64,000 nucleotides of DNA, from sequence record OR192075.1; one strand, written 5' to 3'. The DNA comes from Escherichia phage MIZ6. The notes beneath the pieces were generated by a model. That model made no database searches and was not told where the DNA came from. It was given only the letters and a program-made list of their open reading frames with translations. Shown piece by piece: positions 2,883 to 44,081 of this stretch (position 1 is the first letter of the stretch; every line of letters starts with the position of its first letter). Position numbers and translations under genes: made by a program.

Positions 2883-2963
2883 AATTTGATTCTCCTAGTT
2901 AGAAAGTGTATCTCGTTTCGATGGGTGTATTATGCTATACACCCGATCCGTTGTCAACACTTT

Positions 2964-3242
2964 TTATAAAATAATTTTTTGATATTTTTCTATGATGTTT
3001 GTGTAGGTCACATCAACCGCTAGCACCGTTGCTTCGAATCCACCGTTTAGCCAATGGCTATGGTCATGATCGTGAAAGAAACCAAGACCAGTACGAAGAC
3101 CTTCTTTATATTCGGCGCGTACATTTAGATCATCATCGATAAACAGATAAAACCATGAATTTTTACTAGGATTGATGATACAACCTTTCAGATTAGGGAG
3201 AATATCACGACTAAGAATAAACTTATCACCTACTTTTAGCAT
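2964..3242 (-). CDS. HxHW-family small protein (paralog 2)
   Basis: FYLFIDDDL, HDHDHSHW, VLAVDV; internal ATG at 3242 with RBS GTGAGGAAAA. Confidence 0.55.
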   Translation of the reverse strand: MLKVGDKFILSRDILPNLKGCIINPSKNSWFYLFIDDDLNVRAEYKEGLRTGLGFFHDHDHSHWLNGGFEATVLAVDVTYTNIIEKYQKIIL

Positions 3243-36303: not shown

Positions 36304-36960
36304 ATGCAAGTTTCTGAAAAAGGGAAAGACTTTGCTATCTCAAATGTCCTGCGCGCTATTTTCACAACTAAAAGCACGGAGTTGCTCGTACTTCGTGTTT
36401 TTGCTGCCGTCGTGTTGTCCATATTGGCATTTGTCGTTTATAGTAAAAACGAGTTATTTGCGCTTTATAAAGAGACTCGTTATGAGACTTATGCTCACAT
36501 TCTCCAGGTAGAGAAAGACCGCAATTTTGATAATGCAGCACAGGAGCAGTTACAGATAGTTCATGTGTCGGCTGATGCCGATTTTTCTGCTGTTTTTAGT
36601 TTTCGTCCGAAAAACCTAAACTATTTTGTTGATTTGGTGGCATATGAAGGAAAGCTACCACACACAATCGATGAAAAAAATTTAGGCGGATTCCCTATCA
36701 ATAAAACGAGTGAAGAATATCGTAGGCATCTTTTAGGTAAATCATATTTTACCGATAAAGATTTCCAGTATATTCCATCAAGAGAAAAGAAATTAGAGAA
36801 TATCGATATAGGTTTCATGTATTCTTGTCCTATATTCAATCTCGATAATGTCTATTCTGGTAGTATCGCCATTTCATGGAAGAATAAACCGGATATTGAC
36901 ATTGAGAATTTAGATACTCTTTGCAATCAATCTGCCAGAATCCTCGGAAGGATTAGATAA
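36304..36960 (+). CDS. t: holin (T4 t-like)
   Basis: 218 aa, colinear with T4 T holin (QLQIVH.S.EADFSAV.SFRPKNLNYFVD..AYEGKLP, ARILGR). Confidence 0.9.
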   Translation: MQVSEKGKDFAISNVLRAIFTTKSTELLVLRVFAAVVLSILAFVVYSKNELFALYKETRYETYAHILQVEKDRNFDNAAQEQLQIVHVSADADFSAVFSFRPKNLNYFVDLVAYEGKLPHTIDEKNLGGFPINKTSEEYRRHLLGKSYFTDKDFQYIPSREKKLENIDIGFMYSCPIFNLDNVYSGSIAISWKNKPDIDIENLDTLCNQSARILGRIR

Positions 36961-36966
36961 CTTAAA

Positions 36967-36998
36967 GGGGAAGCCTTTCGGCCTCCCCTTCTTTTTAT
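36967..36998 (+). terminator. rho-independent terminator, probably bidirectional
   Basis: hairpin GGGGAAGCC-TTTC-GGCCTCCCC followed by TTCTTTTTATT. Confidence 0.6.
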
Positions 36999-37243
36999 TG
37001 GCGCATAGACGCGCCTGAATCGCATTTTGACGCTGTATGATGAAAACAGGTAGCGTACCAGTCATCGGCTTGTTTGTCTTCGTCAGAAAACGCGTAATTT
37101 CGTTGTACGCCGTTTTCTACTTTGACCAGTGCGATAGCTGTTTCTGGAAGATCAATCAATCGGACAAAATCACCATCTTCCCACTCTACACGAGCAATAT
37201 CATAGCCCATCTCAAAGTATACAATCGCTTGTTCTAATTTCAT
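36995..37243 (-). CDS. DUF2829-like small protein (Tad2-like candidate)
   Basis: LEQAIVYFEMGYDIARVEW ... SDEDKQADDWY pattern resembles DUF2829. Confidence 0.4.
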   Translation of the reverse strand: MKLEQAIVYFEMGYDIARVEWEDGDFVRLIDLPETAIALVKVENGVQRNYAFSDEDKQADDWYATCFHHTASKCDSGASMRQ

Positions 37244-37563
37244 TCTGGAAACTTCCCGTAAACATTCTCTGCCAGCTTACGTGCGTCTTTTACAATATCT
37301 TTCATGTAATGACTATAATTTTTAGCTAGATCAATGATGCAATCAACAAAGAAGTAATAGCGTCGCAGTGCTACCATCTCAACATCTTCAAGATGACCAT
37401 TTTCTCCAATCTCTGAAATATGTTTAAATTCCTTTCGGATCGCGTCCATCGCGACATTAACTTCTTTTATAATATCTTTCGTATTATATGCACCTCGACT
37501 AATCAAAATTTTGGTTATGTCCTCTGCTTTTTCGTGAAAGTTGTCAATTTCAAACTCGATCAT
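37240..37563 (-). CDS. hypothetical protein, tandem paralog of 37678..38010
   Basis: ATG at 37563 with RBS GAGAGGTGATT; shared C-terminal motif AR..EN.(Y/F).KF. Confidence 0.5.
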   Translation of the reverse strand: MIEFEIDNFHEKAEDITKILISRGAYNTKDIIKEVNVAMDAIRKEFKHISEIGENGHLEDVEMVALRRYYFFVDCIIDLAKNYSHYMKDIVKDARKLAENVYGKFPE

Positions 37564-37677
37564 AATCACCTCTCATAATTTCACGCTGTTGTGTCAACAT
37601 TTTTTCGTGGTTTGCTAATTCTATACCTTGTAATAGCATAACCAGTGCAATTTTCAATGATTCATCATCTTTCATAA

Positions 37678-38010
37678 TCAAAATTTATCGAAAATATTCT
37701 CTGTCATAATTCTTGCTTCGTCGATTATTTTCGTCATGTTCATGGTGTAGTTATGATCATTTAGTGCTTTAATGACAACGAGCAAGGAATCTAAAAACAC
37801 TCGATACCGGGTATATTCTACGCTATTTGTGAATACCGATGTTTTCTCTACTTTATCGATCAGATAGCCTAAAACCGATAGCGCCTCGTTTACTTCCCTT
37901 GTTACTTTATCGGCGCTAAACAACACCGGATAAAGACGCGGTGTGATTAACCGCGCTGCCTCTTTCAATTCGGTCGCTTTCCAGGATTCATATTTGTCAT
38001 AGTTAAACAT
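37678..38010 (-). CDS. hypothetical protein, tandem paralog of 37240..37563
   Basis: ORF; similar length and C-terminus. Confidence 0.5.
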   Translation of the reverse strand: MFNYDKYESWKATELKEAARLITPRLYPVLFSADKVTREVNEALSVLGYLIDKVEKTSVFTNSVEYTRYRVFLDSLLVVIKALNDHNYTMNMTKIIDEARIMTENIFDKF

Positions 38011-38022
38011 TGTATAATCTCC

Positions 38023-38355
38023 TTACAGATGAAAACCTGTTACGATCACCGCATCGATCGTACCGCTAGGAATAAACGGTTCGCCCTCTTTTATTTCAAC
38101 TTTGAATTGATGCCATTTCGCTAATACTTCTTCCGGTACACCCAGCGATTCGGCGTCTGCTTTAGTTTCATCCATAATCCAACTAGGCTGCATGAGAGCA
38201 TAGTTTACATAGTCCATTTCTGGGGTCATGTCATCAATGTTAATATATTTGCAGTTGACGCGTTTCAGAATTTCAAATTCTTTATTGTCAACCTGTACCA
38301 TGTATAATTCAGTAGTTTCTGGAATCAGTTCCCAAACAATCAGTACATTTTTCAT
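38023..38355 (-). CDS. hypothetical protein
   Basis: RBS GTGAGGTGA. Confidence 0.55.
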   Translation of the reverse strand: MKNVLIVWELIPETTELYMVQVDNKEFEILKRVNCKYINIDDMTPEMDYVNYALMQPSWIMDETKADAESLGVPEEVLAKWHQFKVEIKEGEPFIPSGTIDAVIVTGFHL

Positions 38356-38363
38356 AGTTCACC

Positions 38364-38732
38364 TCACTTAACAAAGATTTTCTTTAATGCTTTCAGGATC
38401 GTTGCTTCCGGCGCTTCTTCCGGTGGAGGAAGCAATTCTACCACTTCCTCTTCCAACTCGATATAGTCTACCAGATATTCTACATAGAATGCAAGTGCTT
38501 CCATGAAATTAGATGCTACATCCGATTCACCACACGCACCTACATGCATTGTATAAACACCACTGCGATCAAGTTTGTGGATGCTTCCCAGATAGTTCCG
38601 GTTATACCAGACTTCCCACACTTTCAGCTTTCCAGTTTTTGTTGCTGTTTTATAATCGGTTTCGTAATGATGCAATTGACGTTGCAAATCATTGATAATA
38701 ACACATTTTTCGTAATTGTTTTGAATTTCCAT
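38364..38732 (-). CDS. hypothetical protein
   Basis: RBS GTGAGGATTA. Confidence 0.55.
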   Translation of the reverse strand: MEIQNNYEKCVIINDLQRQLHHYETDYKTATKTGKLKVWEVWYNRNYLGSIHKLDRSGVYTMHVGACGESDVASNFMEALAFYVEYLVDYIELEEEVVELLPPPEEAPEATILKALKKIFVK

Positions 38733-38742
38733 GATGTAATCC

Positions 38743-38934
38743 TCACTTATCGTTAAGAAGTTCTAAAACTTTCTGTCGTACTTTGTCAATATTGGTTGAT
38801 TCAAAAACTGTACGGTATCCCCAGCTTTGACCGTATGAGCGCGAGCAATCCCCATAACCCCATTGTTCAACCTGATAATATTCAAGGAATGGGTGCTGCC
38901 GAACTATGATACCATCGCGATTAAAAATTACCAT
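38743..38934 (-). CDS. hypothetical protein
   Basis: RBS GTGAGGATTA. Confidence 0.5.
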   Translation of the reverse strand: MVIFNRDGIIVRQHPFLEYYQVEQWGYGDCSRSYGQSWGYRTVFESTNIDKVRQKVLELLNDK

Positions 38935-38957
38935 AATATAATCCTCACGTCAACAAC

Positions 38958-39236
38958 TTATTTTCGGTTGTACTTCTGCCACTTTCGGTAATACTGCTTG
39001 TAATATTGTTTAATGTTTGGTGGTTCGTCACTATACATGTTATCAACCATCATGTCAATAAGACCTTCCGGTGTTTGATAGTTACCCGCTCGAATGAGTT
39101 CCTTAATCAAAAGATCTTGTGTCGCTTTATACTTGACAATAACAACTGTCTTTTCTGCCTTTCCAATTCCGATCCGGTCGTTAGCTCTCATAGCATCCCA
39201 CCAATCTTTTTTAAACTTCATGTTGTTAAATTTCAT
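38958..39236 (-). CDS. hypothetical basic protein
   Basis: RBS AAGAAGGG. Confidence 0.5.
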   Translation of the reverse strand: MKFNNMKFKKDWWDAMRANDRIGIGKAEKTVVIVKYKATQDLLIKELIRAGNYQTPEGLIDMMVDNMYSDEPPNIKQYYKQYYRKWQKYNRK

Positions 39237-39239
39237 AAT

Positions 39240-40040
39240 TTAACCCTTCTTATATTCGCAAACATATTGAGTACCATAATCATAGCTAATGCGACCTTTC
39301 TCGATGACTTCAAAGCGGATTTCATCGTTTTCCCCTACCCACATTTTGTACTCGTTGAAGTATCCTGCTACATCCGGTTTGCTCATACCAACAACCATAT
39401 TTTTATATTGTTTGCTGCGTGTCAGATTTGATTTAAACACTTCGCGCTCATCAACATATACGAAAGAAGACAATTCACCTTCGGTCATGGTCATTTTCAG
39501 CTTGCCGCCCTTGTTGCCATAAGTAGAGTTGCCATACAATGGATCTTTGCGGCTGTCTGTTTCAATACCATCAATGATTTTCCATGTAAATTTTGCAATG
39601 CACTGATAAGTGATAGATCCAGAGATTTTCTCTTCTTTCTTCTGTTCTTCCACCACTTTTTCTTCCTGTTTCGGTTGTTCTTCTTCAACCTTCGCAGAAG
39701 TCTCTGAATCGCTTTCTGACTCGGTTTCTTCTTTAGGTAATACATTCATCAAGTTTTGGATTTGAGCGTTGTATACAGCCTCCAGTGGCTGGATCTGTCC
39801 GATATTGATCATTGTATCACGAACAGTTTTATTCCAGTTGCGTTGCTCTTGTTTCAGAGACGGATCAATCTTAACAGCCTTAACATACACCTCATGAAGT
39901 TTCGAATCCAGTGCGGAGATTGACTCATTAGCACAAATAAACTTCTCTGATTTGGTAGTGGCTTTAGCGCAATCAAAGGACGCAGCATTAGCACCGAAAG
40001 CAGTAGCGGAAAGAACGATCGCAGCGATAATGTTTTTCAT
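39240..40040 (-). CDS. secreted protein with LprI/DUF1311-like N-terminal domain
   Basis: signal peptide MKNIIAAIVLSATAFGANA; DCAKATT..EKFICANE..ALD..L...Y Cys pattern; acidic linker. Confidence 0.5.
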   Translation of the reverse strand: MKNIIAAIVLSATAFGANAASFDCAKATTKSEKFICANESISALDSKLHEVYVKAVKIDPSLKQEQRNWNKTVRDTMINIGQIQPLEAVYNAQIQNLMNVLPKEETESESDSETSAKVEEEQPKQEEKVVEEQKKEEKISGSITYQCIAKFTWKIIDGIETDSRKDPLYGNSTYGNKGGKLKMTMTEGELSSFVYVDEREVFKSNLTRSKQYKNMVVGMSKPDVAGYFNEYKMWVGENDEIRFEVIEKGRISYDYGTQYVCEYKKG

Positions 40041-40114
40041 AATATATTCCTCAATGTTTTGTCTTGATGGGAGTATCTTACTACTCCCTTAATCCGGTGT
40101 CAACTACTTTTAAA

Positions 40115-40414
40115 TTATTTTCGCCATTCACCGGAAACAATAAAGTTTGTAAAGTGATCGTGGTCCGTGATAACGTCATTAAGTACCATATGTGGATACA
40201 CTTTAGTGATAATTTTACTAAGTACCATATGCGGATATGCTTTAGTGTAATCACGTTTACGATCAGTCATCCAGCCAACGAAAGTTGGTGCAAAGTACGG
40301 TACACCGTCAGACGATGCCATATTAAACCCTTTATCAACCATAAATGCAGCCGCCCTAAGATTTTTAATTGAAGTAGTGCGACTAATTTCAAAAACTTTA
40401 TCGGTAAAATTCAT
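40115..40414 (-). CDS. hypothetical protein containing internal tandem repeat (KAYPHMVL / KVYPHMVL)
   Basis: ATG at 40414 with G-rich RBS; 39-bp DNA tandem repeat inside. Confidence 0.5.
   Translation of the reverse strand: MNFTDKVFEISRTTSIKNLRAAAFMVDKGFNMASSDGVPYFAPTFVGWMTDRKRDYTKAYPHMVLSKIITKVYPHMVLNDVITDHDHFTNFIVSGEWRK
40181..40255. repeat. about 39-bp direct tandem repeat, 2 copies
   Basis: aagtaccatatg(t/c)ggata(c/t)(a/g)ctttagtg... repeated back to back. Confidence 0.6.
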
Positions 40415-40415
40415 T

Positions 40416-40625
40416 TTAAGCCCCCGCTCGTGCATTAATACGCATTTTCTGCATAGCCATGATCTGGTTTACTGCTTCTTCTTTACGTTCTTGCGTGATA
40501 ACGTGACCAGATTCCGCAAACTCTCCCGCAACTTCTTCTACGATCTCGCGAACTTGAGAACGTCCAAAGATGCGGTTTCCTTCGTAGCTCATAAACTCGG
40601 TTACTACTTGCTCGATAGATTTCAT
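40416..40625 (-). CDS. hypothetical protein
   Basis: promoter cassette and GGAGAATCA RBS. Confidence 0.55.
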   Translation of the reverse strand: MKSIEQVVTEFMSYEGNRIFGRSQVREIVEEVAGEFAESGHVITQERKEEAVNQIMAMQKMRINARAGA

Positions 40626-40691
40626 GTGATTCTCCTTTCGTTTCGGTGTGGGAGTATGTTAATACTCCCATTTCTTTACGTCAACCAGTTT

Positions 40692-40934
40692 TTAGAAATT
40701 TTTCGCTTCTTCTTCGGTCATCATCACCGCGCATTCGTGCATAACTTTGAAAACCGGGTCAATCATATCGAATGCTTCGCTGGACAGTTTACGAGAAGCG
40801 ATTTTGATTGCTTCAACGTCTTCTACTACAGGAACAAAAACAGTTTTCAGTTCGTCGAGCACGGCAGCTTCTTTTTCATTCAGGAAGATCCCAGCGTCGT
40901 ACAGTGCAACTTCGATAACATTAACTTTAACCAT
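40692..40934 (-). CDS. hypothetical acidic protein
   Basis: RBS GGAGGAAATAAA; promoter cassette. Confidence 0.55.
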   Translation of the reverse strand: MVKVNVIEVALYDAGIFLNEKEAAVLDELKTVFVPVVEDVEAIKIASRKLSSEAFDMIDPVFKVMHECAVMMTEEEAKNF

Positions 40935-40973
40935 TTTATTTCCTCCAGTTCGTTTCGGTATGGGAGTATAATA

Positions 40974-41198
40974 CTACCGATGACCTTTGGCGTCAACTGC
41001 TTTTTTATTATTTTCGTGAAAATTTTTCGTCGCCTCATGTGCTTTTCGCTGGGCTTCTTGTTGTGCTTGCTGGCGTGCTGCCTCTTGTGAAGCCATAACG
41101 GAAGCATTTGCAGCAGTTACAGCCGCTACCATCGCTGCGGTATTAGCATTTACAGTACATGCACTAGCCAGCAAAGCAATTGCAATCATTTTCTTCAT
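40974..41198 (-). CDS. small secreted protein or lipoprotein
   Basis: signal peptide MKKMIAIALLASAC; RBS AAAGGGGAAA. Confidence 0.5.
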   Translation of the reverse strand: MKKMIAIALLASACTVNANTAAMVAAVTAANASVMASQEAARQQAQQEAQRKAHEATKNFHENNKKAVDAKGHR

Positions 41199-41365
41199 AG
41201 TTTCCCCTTTAGGTTATCTTCGACCTTCACCCATTCCGCGTATTCTTGCGCGGCTACTTTCGGATTTAGTCCGTCTTCGTACATTGCTTCAAGTAATTCT
41301 TCGTCGGTGGGCTTATACCCTAGATAAGCCTCCACCTGATTTTTCCAAATTTTATACCAGTTCAT
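41195..41365 (-). CDS. small hypothetical protein (56 aa)
   Basis: ATG at 41365 with RBS GGTGA. Confidence 0.45.
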   Translation of the reverse strand: MNWYKIWKNQVEAYLGYKPTDEELLEAMYEDGLNPKVAAQEYAEWVKVEDNLKGKL

Positions 41366-41369
41366 ATTA

Positions 41370-41642
41370 TCACCAGTCAAGAGCGCGTGTCTCTGCGTCT
41401 TCCCATGCTTGATCCATAACAGCCTTGAAAACATATTCTAAAGTATCATCTTTAGAGAATCCGAAGACCTTAGACGGAATATCTTCAATTGCTACTCCCG
41501 CGACTTCTGCATTACGCGCTTGGCAATAATGCAACTCTAAGTTATCGAGATAGCGACCGCCTAATTTCTCCATATCATCCCAGCATTTCCAGTAACCTAC
41601 TTTATTTGCAATCGCTAACACCTTGCTGTTTTCGTTGTTCAT
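41370..41642 (-). CDS. hypothetical protein
   Basis: ATG at 41642 directly behind GGAGAATCAAAG RBS and promoter cassette. Confidence 0.55.
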   Translation of the reverse strand: MNNENSKVLAIANKVGYWKCWDDMEKLGGRYLDNLELHYCQARNAEVAGVAIEDIPSKVFGFSKDDTLEYVFKAVMDQAWEDAETRALDW

Positions 41643-41711
41643 CTTTGATTCTCCTTTTGTTTGGTATGTGTGTATTATGCAATGATGGATTTGTGAAGTC
41701 AACAACTTTTT

Positions 41712-41742
41712 AAAATAAAAAAGCCGACCACACGGATCGGCT
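41712..41742 (-). terminator. rho-independent terminator
   Basis: hairpin AGCCGATCCGTGTGGTCGGCT plus TTTTTTATTTT on minus strand. Confidence 0.6.
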
Positions 41743-41752
41743 TAATAATCAG

Positions 41753-42145
41753 TTACTTACTAAATTTCTTTTTGGCTTCGTCTACCGCATGAGATGCCAG
41801 TACCGCAGCCGCATGTGCACTTTTATCTGTGTTGCAGAGAACACCCAGATAAACATCACGCCAAAGTTTAATCATCTCGTAGATCATATCAATATCATTT
41901 TCTTGTTTGTTGGCGATGCTATTCGTCGTTATCTGGTAAGGTAACGGCTTAATCTGTACTGGTTCCGCCATCGGGCTAAACGGTTTCGGATCAGTCATCG
42001 GATTAATTGATGGCGATGTTTTCCATACGTCATTATTCCACGGTTTAACGGTTGTACCGTATATTTTATAAGGATTTTTGTCTGGATCAACCATCCATGC
42101 ATGATGGATACCTAAACCATTTGAAGTGATGCGTCGTTCAGTCAT
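41753..42145 (-). CDS. hypothetical protein
   Basis: RBS GAGGGGG. Confidence 0.55.
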   Translation of the reverse strand: MTERRITSNGLGIHHAWMVDPDKNPYKIYGTTVKPWNNDVWKTSPSINPMTDPKPFSPMAEPVQIKPLPYQITTNSIANKQENDIDMIYEMIKLWRDVYLGVLCNTDKSAHAAAVLASHAVDEAKKKFSK

Positions 42146-42344
42146 GTTTTACCCCCTCTGATAATTCTTTCATCAAGCTGTCGATCTTTGCTCTGTGTTC
42201 TGGCGTGTTTGTCATCTCTGCTAATTTGCTCAGAGATTCACTGGTGATCCGGTTGGATTCTTCCAGTGTTTCAACGACAATTGGCACAATCTTTTTATTG
42301 TTGTACAGAAATGCAATATAACCGCCTTCTGGATATTCTTTCAT
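42138..42344 (-). CDS. hypothetical protein
   Basis: ATG at 42344 with RBS AAGAAGGG. Confidence 0.5.
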   Translation of the reverse strand: MKEYPEGGYIAFLYNNKKIVPIVVETLEESNRITSESLSKLAEMTNTPEHRAKIDSLMKELSEGVKHD

Positions 42345-42346
42345 AA

Positions 42347-43711
42347 TCAACCCTTCTTAAGTTCTTTAAGATCTTTCTTATATTCCTTCATTGCGGTCGT
42401 CTTTGTCCAATACTCATATTCACTATGATGTTTCTCGGCATCTTTGACCAGTCGATCATACTCTTCTTGAGTAACGCTATACAATGGCATAGAAACTAGC
42501 TTATCGGCGTATGGACGCAGTTTTTCATGTCCATTGATGGATTGCATTACATCGGCCTTTTTCTTTCCCTGTAGCTCGATTTCGCCATTAATTACGAGAT
42601 CGATAAATTCGGCTTTAGCCATTGCATAATTGTATGCTTCCAGCGTTTCCGCTTGCATCAATTCAATGCGTTTATCGACATACCCTAATCGGATTTCGAC
42701 GAATCGACGGATCAGATCGCTCGCTTTCTCGAATACTTCTACTAAACCACGTTCATTAACCACTACGATATTCTGGGCTACTAACTGTGTTAGTTTAAAA
42801 TCCTTCATGATTTGCTCATGTCGAGCGGATTCATCTTCGCTTTTGAAATAATCGCGTTTCAGTGTTACTTCAAATCTGAATCCATCCTTAGAGCAACGGT
42901 CATTATATGAGACAATCAGATCTTTTTCTTCCAGTGCATCCAGTACCGCTACATATTCTTCACGGTCGAACTTATAAGGGACTTCTGATATTGTCAGCTT
43001 AGTCTTGCCGTTTAGTTCATATGTACCCTCAAGAATCACACCATCGCGATCATCTCGCGGGATAACTTTACCCGTGAATTTCGGGAATTGAACACTAGGT
43101 TCTTTATCCAGTTTTCCGGCAAGTGCTAGCTCTGTGCATTCAATGAGGCTTTCCAGTGAATGCGGTAAAATGTCAGTTTTATACCCTGTAGCAATACCAC
43201 TAATACCATTAGCCAATACCATTGGCACAACTGGCAAGTAGAACGCTGGCGGGATGTGTTCCAGATCTTCGTGCTTAGGTGCGCAATTCATATCTTTATA
43301 GATTTTAAAGAAGTTTTCATGCACGCGAGCAAAGATATAACGTGCCGCACCTGCTTTCTGGACTAAACGCGATCCGAAGTTACCTTGACCGTCAAGCAGT
43401 GGAGTATTATTGCTCCATGTATTCGCCATAAGTGATCCGGCTTCTACGGCATTAGTTTCCCCGTGGTGATAACCCAACTCGGCAACACCAGATCCAATAT
43501 CTGCCATCTTACGGAATTTCTTACGGTCGCCTTTACTCTTTTGCAAAGCACATTCCATAACAAAGCGTTGCACTGGTTTAAGCCCATCCACTAATTGAGG
43601 AATCCCGCGTTCCTCGGCAGAATAGATCGCATATTCCTTAGCTTCATTATGTACAATGCTTTCAAGGCTGCGGTAAGTAAATGTGTTTACAATTTGACTA
43701 ATTTTATCCAT
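42347..43711 (-). CDS. 52: DNA topoisomerase II medium subunit (T4 gp52-like, GyrA-like)
   Basis: GLKPVQRFV active-site region; colinear with T4 gp52; ATG at 43711 with RBS GAGGTGAAG. Confidence 0.9.
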   Translation of the reverse strand: MDKISQIVNTFTYRSLESIVHNEAKEYAIYSAEERGIPQLVDGLKPVQRFVMECALQKSKGDRKKFRKMADIGSGVAELGYHHGETNAVEAGSLMANTWSNNTPLLDGQGNFGSRLVQKAGAARYIFARVHENFFKIYKDMNCAPKHEDLEHIPPAFYLPVVPMVLANGISGIATGYKTDILPHSLESLIECTELALAGKLDKEPSVQFPKFTGKVIPRDDRDGVILEGTYELNGKTKLTISEVPYKFDREEYVAVLDALEEKDLIVSYNDRCSKDGFRFEVTLKRDYFKSEDESARHEQIMKDFKLTQLVAQNIVVVNERGLVEVFEKASDLIRRFVEIRLGYVDKRIELMQAETLEAYNYAMAKAEFIDLVINGEIELQGKKKADVMQSINGHEKLRPYADKLVSMPLYSVTQEEYDRLVKDAEKHHSEYEYWTKTTAMKEYKKDLKELKKG

Positions 43712-43718
43712 CTTCACC

Positions 43719-44081
43719 TCATACACGCTTACAAATCACATTCTTTACTTTATCAGATTTATCAGCCCAATCCAATAGCCATTTTAACGGAAGGATTGAC
43801 ACAATAAACGGGGCAGCAATCAAAGCAAACATGATACACCTGATAATCAGGAAAACGCAAGTGACAAAACTAGCGATAGTGATCCCGACAAAACAAAATA
43901 CCATAGAAAACAGAGTAATGATATAGAAAGGCCAGAATACCCACTCCCGCATCTTAACGCCTTTGTATTCTCTGAATTGCTTAAAATCTACAAACAACTC
44001 TCGGATAGACGCGTACAGGACCGAAAAATCATCTTTCATTGCTCTGAATGAGCAATCTTCTATTTTAGAATGACCTAGCAT
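43719..44081 (-). CDS. membrane protein (2 predicted TM helices)
   Basis: hydrophobic segments WVFWPFYIITLFSMVFCFVGITIASFV and FALIAAPFIVSILPL. Confidence 0.5.
   Translation of the reverse strand: MLGHSKIEDCSFRAMKDDFSVLYASIRELFVDFKQFREYKGVKMREWVFWPFYIITLFSMVFCFVGITIASFVTCVFLIIRCIMFALIAAPFIVSILPLKWLLDWADKSDKVKNVICKRV

Follow-up and report, generated by a model that had tools for sequence, protein, structure and literature searches.

A divergent, acidic Tad2-family protein encoded beside the holin gene of Krischvirus coliphages

Tad2 sponges are one of the main means by which phages disarm signalling immunity (Thoeris, CBASS, Pycsar), and their distribution among phages bears on host range and on phage selection for therapy. 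Does the small gene lying next to the holin gene of RB49-like coliphages encode such a sponge, and against which signal might it be directed? The question is raised by a stretch of 64,000 nucleotides from Escherichia phage MIZ6 (record OR192075.1; hereafter the window), a Krischvirus of the RB49-like group in the T4-like family Straboviridae. An initial annotation, based on the letters of the window and a list of its open reading frames, had described the product of this gene as a member of family DUF2829/Tad2 and as a candidate anti-defence protein.

The gene, its surroundings and its conservation

The Tad2-like ORF extends over positions 36995..37243 of the minus strand, with an ATG start and a stop codon at 36995-36997. 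Its product of 82 aa begins with MKLEQAIVYFEMGYDIARVEW and ends with SDEDKQADDWYATCFHHTASKCDSGASMRQ; the same coordinates and sequence had been given in the initial annotation and were found again in the ORF listing. Recognition of this CDS and of its PF11195/DUF2829 product is based on the ORF listing, the Pfam and PHROG matches, the annotations of phages MIZ3 and Phi1, and the dN/dS ratio. The gene had also been placed downstream of the holin gene, which is correct in terms of coordinates but not of transcription: holin gene t (36304..36960; Pfam Phage_holin_T, E 4.5e-61) is located on the plus strand and converges with the Tad2-like gene.

Between the topoisomerase II gene gp52 (42347..43726) and t, about 16 small ORFs form a leftward run of which the Tad2-like gene is the last member. 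Its ATG shares bases with the stop codon of ORF 37240..37569, located just upstream, in an ATGA motif (37240..37243, minus strand) that is apparent from the sequence and the ORF coordinates and suggests translational coupling between both ORFs. A PDB search with this upstream ORF gave no meaningful relative. Among the 19 neighbouring ORFs scanned from gp52 to t, Pfam matches were limited to the topoisomerase and an LprI domain, which designates no candidate partner gene. In phage T4, it is asiA that converges with t; models of AsiA and MotA matched none of these 19 ORFs.

The convergent genes are separated by a GC-rich hairpin (36964..36991), which was folded on both strands and is probably a bidirectional intrinsic terminator. 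Its plus-strand RNA has a predicted energy of -17.5 kcal/mol (z -2.1) and is followed by a T-run, while the minus-strand RNA forms a 12-bp stem of -23.6 kcal/mol (z -4.8) that starts 4 nt past the stop codon of the Tad2-like gene. Terminators are also annotated inside the matched 4-kb region of the GEC-3S records. A consensus scan identified the best σ70-type promoter candidate at 39030..39058 on the minus strand (TTGACA-17-TATAGT, 11 of 12 consensus positions). Such a promoter would drive a leftward run of six genes from 38934 to 36995 with the Tad2-like gene in last position, and no terminator-like site was found on the minus strand between 39030 and this gene. Further σ70-like matches on the coding strand were located at 40103, 40996 and 41702; the strongest matches of the region are on the coding strand, in a total number of promoters not above shuffled expectation. 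No T4-type late promoter (TATAAATA) was detected within 5 kb of the gene. Taken together, the σ70-like matches on the coding strand and the lack of a nearby late promoter make an early or σ70-dependent expression plausible, as far as consensus matches can indicate.

A 4-kb query around the gene matched Escherichia phages MIZ3 and MIZ2 at 100% identity, and GEC-3S, Phi1, JSE and RB49 at 93-98%. MIZ3 and Phi1 carry the same CDS as a "hypothetical protein" (ORF255 in Phi1), and tblastn retrieved the protein at 96-100% amino acid identity from 58 phage records. Outside Krischvirus, the only tblastn matches were two N4-like Klebsiella phages, with 42% identity over 52 residues. Comparison of the window with the Phi1 gene revealed 11 synonymous and one non-synonymous difference (dN/dS about 0.02), a substitution pattern showing that the ORF is a genuine gene on which purifying selection acts strongly. 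A truncated allele of 40 aa (P0006), found on a contig of about 165 kb, hints either that the gene is dispensable or that a sequencing error occurred.

Family membership, predicted fold and relatives

The protein matched the Pfam family PF11195 'Tad2-like' (formerly DUF2829) with 28.4 bits (E 2.4e-6) over residues 1-63, corresponding to positions 1-71 of the 73 positions of the model. The gathering score being 25 bits, the margin was small. However, all ten members of the subfamily defined below matched PF11195 independently, with a best E-value of 8e-7. The protein also matched PHROG 1048 (function unknown; E 3.4e-19), and its exact sequence is named 'Thoeris anti-defense 2-like domain-containing protein' in UniRef. 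Searches of PDB sequences with the protein alone or with a profile of four subfamily sequences yielded nothing, even at E ≤ 10. When the subfamily was aligned by hhalign with 46 homologues of SPO1 Tad2, the alignment was full length and sensible, with a probability of only 26% and a pairwise E-value of 7e-4. At the sequence level, the relation to characterised Tad2 proteins is therefore remote, and since no PDB sequence was matched, the link with solved Tad2 structures relies on the Pfam HMM, the hhalign alignment and fold comparison. It is worth noting that SPO1 Tad2 had been tentatively equated with gp0.9 on account of the 89-aa length, an assignment rejected on translation; a scan for an 89-aa ORF containing W25-N26 designated gp34.65, in agreement with the PDB molecule names.

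An AlphaFold2 model built on the ten subfamily sequences displayed block pLDDT values of 79-95 over residues 1-70, the core reaching about 90. The folded Tad2 core (residues 1-68; 37040..37243, minus strand) is predicted to consist of helix α1 (3-11), four β-strands (14-18, 26-32, 36-43 and 46-49), a short helix (54-58) and a terminal strand (62-67). The features of the Tad2 fold are found in the model: an antiparallel β-sheet against which the N-terminal helix packs, followed towards the C-terminus by a short helix and a strand with the D-W pair. Using the first model, the top eight PDB matches of Foldseek were all Tad2 proteins (TM 0.57-0.62, prob 1.0), and structural neighbours in BFVD were "Thoeris anti-defense 2-like" proteins. 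The predicted structure settles the family question despite the remote sequence relation. Membership in the Tad2 family, as proposed in the initial annotation, is confirmed by the two comparisons suggested there, that of the sequence with the Pfam HMM and that of the predicted structure with Tad2, and by the subfamily matches and the UniRef name. Through this membership, the gene also keeps its standing as a Tad2-like anti-defence candidate, while the step from there to a sponge for TIR-derived nucleotides is conjectural. The domain call itself is not new, since automatic annotation had already made it public, and the word 'Thoeris' in the protein name is inherited from the name of the family and does not reflect findings on the protein itself. 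Residues 69-82 form a C-terminal tail (36998..37039, minus strand) predicted to be disordered (pLDDT <50 in both models); it is found in the T4-like branch of the subfamily only and its sequence is not conserved. Klebsiella-phage homologues stop right after the DW motif in the alignment.

Relatives of the protein are few. A phmmer search against 1.8 billion representative sequences returned eight matches, among which only four clusters were true relatives, and a profile search added a handful of others. The resulting subfamily (n=10) comprises three parts: T4-like phages, Klebsiella phages and genomes, and a single metagenomic viral protein (P0130). Three long proteins (P0003, P0007 and P0008), with E-values down to 6.6e-16, were rejected because their scores summed weak matches to repeats, spread over 5-9 repeated stretches; P0007, the one inspected, is composed of tandem repeats of about 90 residues. 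Another candidate, P0002 (83 aa, 84-91% identical), looked like a homologue differing at the C-terminus, but about 25 residues at its end correspond to the antisense ORF 37037..37237, and it was rejected as an assembly chimera.

The T4-like part of the subfamily includes the Krischvirus cluster and two proteins with 51-57% identity (P0004 and P0005), encoded at the same syntenic place in other T4-like contigs and convergent with a T-type holin gene. The topoisomerase-to-holin arrangement is likewise present on the contig of P0005. The nearest relatives outside T4-like phages are found in Klebsiella, both in N4-like phages (e.g. P4a_00012 of VLCpiP4a) and in genomes (P0129, P0131-P0135). These proteins are 68-72 aa long, lack the C-terminal tail and share 29-34% identity with the MIZ6 protein in full-length alignment, with values of up to 42-44% when the local match alone is considered. 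They are acidic as well, and R18, W21, D23, G45, Y50, [ST]53, D56 and D61-W62 are common to both. The VLCpiP4a gene is inserted between two tail-protein genes and not in an early cluster.

The ligand pocket and possible functions

In SPO1 Tad2, the ligand is contacted by W25, N26, I63, T65, D67, H71, W73, S76, T78 and D79 (Yirmiya et al.). HgmTad2 uses W21, N22 and G23 to hold the diphosphate, together with W87, S90, T92 and D93 (Li et al.). Translation and alignment by hhalign and MAFFT located two counterparts of these motifs in the MIZ6 protein. The first, W21-E22-D23 (37175..37183, minus strand), corresponds to the canonical ligand-phosphate motif W25-N26-G27(-K28): the tryptophan is identical, N26 and G27 are replaced non-conservatively by E22 and D23, and K28 is lost in a gap. 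The second, Y50-A-F-S53-D-E55-D56-K-Q-A-D-D61-W62 (37058..37096, minus strand), corresponds to W73-x-x-S76-Q-T78-D79-x-L-A-x-D84-W85. Here S53, D56 and D61-W62 are identical to S76, D79 and D84-W85, and Y50 keeps the aromatic character of W73, whereas the change of T78 to E55 is non-conservative. T65 and Q77 were also changed non-conservatively (the latter to D), and L81 is changed as well. The pocket is thus partially retained, through W21, Y50, S53, D56 and D61-W62.

Among the 46 canonical homologues, W25, N26, G27, K28, T65, W73, S76, Q77, T78, D79, L81, D84 and W85 are invariant. Within the ten-member subfamily, conservation is complete for R18, W21, V27, D56, D61 and W62 and almost complete for A6, I16, D23, L39, G45 and Y50; the tryptophan is followed by E, D, V or P and then, in nine of the ten sequences, by an acidic residue. 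The β2-β3 insertion, which in SPO1 Tad2 bears helix α2 and forms a V-shaped dimer (half of the tetramer), measures about 24 residues in that protein and about 40 in HgmTad2, versus about 6 (D31-T36) in the MIZ6 protein, where no helix is predicted. Because of this reduction from about 24 to about 6 residues, a tetramer may not form as it does in SPO1 Tad2. The β2-β3 loop is also where Krischvirus alleles differ from each other, including by an indel of 1 aa. Of the W-N-G-K motif of functional sponges the tryptophan alone is kept, and as the helix α2 insertion is missing too, the protein was filed by HMM and fold as a divergent member of PF11195. Its composition is unusual as well. The net charge is -8 (pI 4.46), the 68-residue core having -9 and a pI of 4.2, and subfamily values range from -6 to -12 (pI 4.05-4.47), whereas the canonical set of SPO1 Tad2 homologues spans -5 to +1 (median -1). 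Positively charged pockets between protomers are a common trait of known sponges, although exceptions exist (Tal et al.).

The reading that we favour, with about even confidence, is that of an early-expressed, homo-oligomeric sponge directed at some form of signalling immunity. It draws on the Tad2 fold, the small size, the partly kept pocket, purifying selection, the position in a putative early cluster and the repeated retuning of ligands within the family. Known sponges are small, stand-alone proteins (Tal et al.), as is this one with its 82 aa. As a minimal and highly acidic Tad2 (PF11195/DUF2829) member of the phage sponge proteins, it would be made early, as the last product of the leftward accessory cluster extending from gp52 to holin gene t, and would assemble into homo-oligomers like the tetramers of characterised Tad2 proteins. 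It may then sequester a small signalling molecule produced by a host abortive-infection system, and with the signal captured the effector would never be switched on. Binding of classical 3'cADPR/gcADPR, i.e. type I Thoeris inhibition, is the less likely sub-case and receives a small share of this confidence, owing to the replacement of W-N-G-K by W-E-D and to the net charge of -8.

Several observations touch on sponge activity from both sides. Tad2 proteins with non-canonical motifs can be active, as exemplified by Tad2_79 and Tad2_72. The changes at N26-G27-K28, T78 and T65, the loss of the insertion, the acidity and the inactivity of Tad2_80 point in the opposite direction, as do the weak sequence relation to solved Tad2 proteins and the truncated allele P0006.

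A more specific proposal, which we regard as doubtful, is that the acidic, insertion-less W-x-D branch, shared by RB49-like coliphages and N4-like Klebsiella phages, was retuned to a ligand chemically unlike the known anionic signals derived from ADPR or cyclic nucleotides. Candidates would be a cationic, amino-acid-conjugated or metal-bridged immune signal, belonging to a defence system of enterobacteria with a still unrecognised messenger. If this holds true, the protein could be used as a bait for that messenger, in the same way as ModTad2 served in the discovery of His-ADPR.

Another possible explanation, tentative and clearly less probable than a sponge, is that this protein uses its Tad2 fold to bind a macromolecule instead of a small molecule. 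The protein would then be an acidic early inhibitor of a host protein, such as a nuclease or a defence effector, acting by DNA or charge mimicry or in the AcrIIA7-versus-Cas9 manner first proposed for a DUF2829 protein. Its acidity, well outside the canonical Tad2 range both for the whole protein and for the core, is in agreement with such a role, and so are the loss of the phosphate-binding motif, with an acidic residue at the matching position in nine of ten subfamily members, and the inactivity of the distant relative Tad2_80 against seven of seven signalling systems. The first DUF2829 protein was moreover reported as an anti-CRISPR, and the gene belongs to a hyperplastic early region. In T4, AsiA, Arn and similar small inhibitors aimed at the host are encoded in this region. 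However, AcrIIA7 (HgmTad2) proved to be a nucleotide sponge and its binding to Cas9 was never demonstrated. Type II-A CRISPR-Cas9 is not known as a system of E. coli, which counts against the Cas9 version of this explanation. Conservation of W21, Y50, S/T53 and D56 across the subfamily also fits a retained small-molecule site.

That the protein is a canonical anti-Thoeris sponge, forming a homotetramer that binds 3'cADPR (1''-3' gcADPR) and rescues phages from type I Thoeris as SPO1 Tad2 does, appears unlikely. Membership in the family and the fold, the equivalence of W21, S53 and D56 with W25, S76 and D79 of SPO1, the aromatic replacement of W73 by Y50, and the inhibition of type I Thoeris by most of the assayed Tad2 homologues that carry the canonical motif all speak for it. 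Yet acidic residues or a gap stand in place of N26, G27 and K28, T78 has become Glu, helix α2 is missing, and the strongly negative charge is unfavourable for a diphosphate ligand; in addition, Tad2_80 and Tad2_69, both devoid of W-N-G-K, gave no inhibition of type I Thoeris, as we read Table S2 of Hadary et al. 2025. Finally, binding of a non-immune host metabolite or second messenger for host takeover, or a functionless drifting gene, is very improbable: HgmTad2 and SptTad2 do bind the general bacterial messenger c-di-GMP with high affinity (Li et al.), sponge pockets can serve non-immune nucleotides (Tal et al.) and a truncated allele exists, but HgmTad2 forms its c-di-GMP site from the long insertion domain, absent here, and a dN/dS of 0.02, occurrence in 58 phage records and a synteny that stays fixed at about 50% sequence divergence weigh heavily against a gene devoid of function.

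Whatever its ligand, a Tad2-family gene can now be placed across the whole genus Krischvirus (RB49, Phi1, JSE, GEC-3S), well-studied T4-like coliphages in which GenBank calls the product hypothetical and to which UniProt automatically propagates the name 'Thoeris anti-defense'. It represents a divergent, acidic and minimal variant without a close counterpart in the published specificity screens. Should the protein be active, its ligand would either widen the range of specificities known for Tad2 proteins or reveal a signal so far unrecognised in Enterobacteria; should it be inactive, it would mark a limit of inferring function from a Pfam label.

Comparison with characterised Tad2 proteins

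Ligands reported for the Tad2 family comprise 3'cADPR, 2'cADPR, His-ADPR, N7-cADPR, cyclic dinucleotides and cUMP/cCMP, sometimes held in two separate pockets. No paper connecting Tad2 or Thoeris to RB49 or Krischvirus was retrieved in a literature search. Hadary et al. 2025 challenged 18 Tad2 homologues with seven systems. In the portions of the supplements of this study available to us, there was no match to the MIZ6 sequence, RB49 or Krischvirus, which does not imply absence from the set of 2,783 Tad2 sequences. As we read Table S2 of that report, most W-N-G-K proteins inhibit at least one Thoeris type. Among those with other motifs, Tad2_79 (W-S-K) and Tad2_72 (W-P-K) both block Thoeris I, and Tad2_79 also blocks Thoeris IV, while Tad2_69 (W-P-Q) inhibits none of the seven systems. 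Tad2_80 likewise gave no inhibition of Thoeris (types I, II and IV), CBASS (two systems) or Pycsar (two systems). This last protein (IMGVR_UViG_3300031873_000003) was found by the subfamily profile, is identical to P0130 and is the sole assayed member of the subfamily. It is 73 aa long with a net charge of -6, and shares with the MIZ6 protein its acidity, a minimal architecture without insertion and an acidic motif following the tryptophan (E-W-P-D-D versus E-W-E-D-G). It is, however, the most distant subfamily member, with about 18-20% identity, a Leu at the position of Y50 and no tail. Its inactivity should be taken as a warning for the MIZ6 protein and not as a verdict.

Among proteins of known structure, ModTad2 (or MoTad2), from a Myroides odoratus prophage (PDB 9EIB, 8V3E), is a sponge for His-ADPR of type II Thoeris and for cUMP/cCMP of Pycsar. 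It is 18% identical to the MIZ6 protein but has kept both W-N-G-K and the insertion. Its second pocket, for cUMP, lies at the A-C interface, where the pocket of HgmTad2 is made of insertion elements that are absent from the MIZ6 protein. HgmTad2/AcrIIA7 (PDB 8KBI and others) and SptTad2 (8WJD) are sponges for gcADPR and cyclic dinucleotides. The cyclic-dinucleotide pocket of HgmTad2 is formed by its insertion of about 40 residues (Li et al.), which is essentially deleted in the MIZ6 protein, and the W21-N22-G23 motif that binds the diphosphate has W-E-D as its equivalent.

SPO1 Tad2 (gp34.65; PDB 8SME/8SMF/8SMG, 8WJE) is the founding anti-Thoeris sponge for 1''-3' and 1''-2' gcADPR. It belongs to the same Pfam family as the MIZ6 protein and has the same core fold, and both are small stand-alone phage proteins. 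Identity is about 17-21%, with no match in sequence searches, and the disordered tail of 14 residues is an addition of the MIZ6 protein. Shared residues (SPO1/MIZ6) are A10/A6, R22/R18, W25/W21, S76/S53, D79/D56 and D84-W85/D61-W62.

PHROG 9457 paralogues and the intervening small ORF

Directly upstream of the Tad2-like gene (36995..37243, minus strand), two adjacent, paralogous minus-strand ORFs of 109 and 110 aa (37240..37569 and 37678..38010) both matched PHROG 9457, and their products share 35% identity over the C-terminal 43 residues (E 1e-6). The first of them overlaps the Tad2-like gene by an ATGA motif, an arrangement which suggests that both genes may be translationally coupled. In the two distant T4-like contigs L007 and L008, the Tad2-like gene is likewise directly preceded by a gene encoding 110-111 aa, the likeness being one of length and position. 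Neither PHROG 9457 ORF displayed a Pfam match, and no meaningful relative of the product of 37240..37569 was found in the PDB. The PHROG 9457 proteins may be functionally linked to the Tad2-like protein.

A further minus-strand ORF, of 43 aa (37550..37681), occupies the 108-nt gap that separates these paralogues. The corresponding position is annotated as ORF256.1 (126 nt) in the related phage Phi1 but carries no annotation in MIZ3, which represents an annotation discrepancy between both genomes.

Aberrant alleles and false homologues of the Tad2-like protein

Several database proteins retrieved by phmmer with the 82-aa Tad2-like query deserve caution. P0003, P0007 and P0008 are long repeat proteins whose E-values (6.6e-16 to 4.8e-5) are sums over 5-9 weak repeat matches, and they were rejected as false positives; P0007, the one inspected among the three, consists of tandem repeats of ~90 residues each. 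Matches of this type could misdirect automated homology pipelines.

Protein P0002, from an ENA contig of 3785 bp, follows the Tad2-like protein for ~59 residues, after which the sequence changes. Its continuation, …SDKITVFPFYTSNIITHLKINNRLF, is nearly identical to …SDKITIFPLYTSNIIAHLKVYNRLF of the antisense ORF of the same locus (37037..37237, plus strand), which indicates that this public metagenome contains an assembly chimera of the fold-back or inverted-repeat type. P0006 (40 aa) is identical to the Tad2-like protein over 30 residues and out of frame thereafter; it derives from an allele of the gene that is frameshifted or truncated. Its longest contig (164,992 bp) is near-complete and Krischvirus-sized, and the loss of frame reflects either an error in sequencing or natural variation that abolishes function.

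The gp52-t cluster compared with T4 and a Klebsiella phage

Among the 19 ORFs scanned near the Tad2-like gene (cluster 36995..43726, minus strand), LprI and the topoisomerase itself were the only Pfam families matched, with no match to AsiA or MotA. The equivalent region of T4 holds asiA, arn and motA; in the window phage, the position adjoining holin gene t is occupied by the Tad2-like gene.

The LprI (lysozyme inhibitor) domain, PF07007, was found in a 266-aa ORF of the same early cluster (39240..40040, minus strand) with an E-value of 1.4e-5, over the Pfam cut-off; the ORF also strongly matched PHROG 14799. Its hydrophobic N-terminus, MKNIIAAIVLSATAFGANA, resembles a signal peptide; this T4-like phage may carry a secreted or periplasmic LprI-like protein.

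The nearest homologue of the Tad2-like protein outside T4-like phages belongs to the N4-like Klebsiella phage VLCpiP4a (Schitoviridae; 2953..3159 of sequence L003). Unlike the window gene, it lies between two tail-protein genes, outside any early-gene cluster, an odd neighbourhood for an anti-defence sponge.
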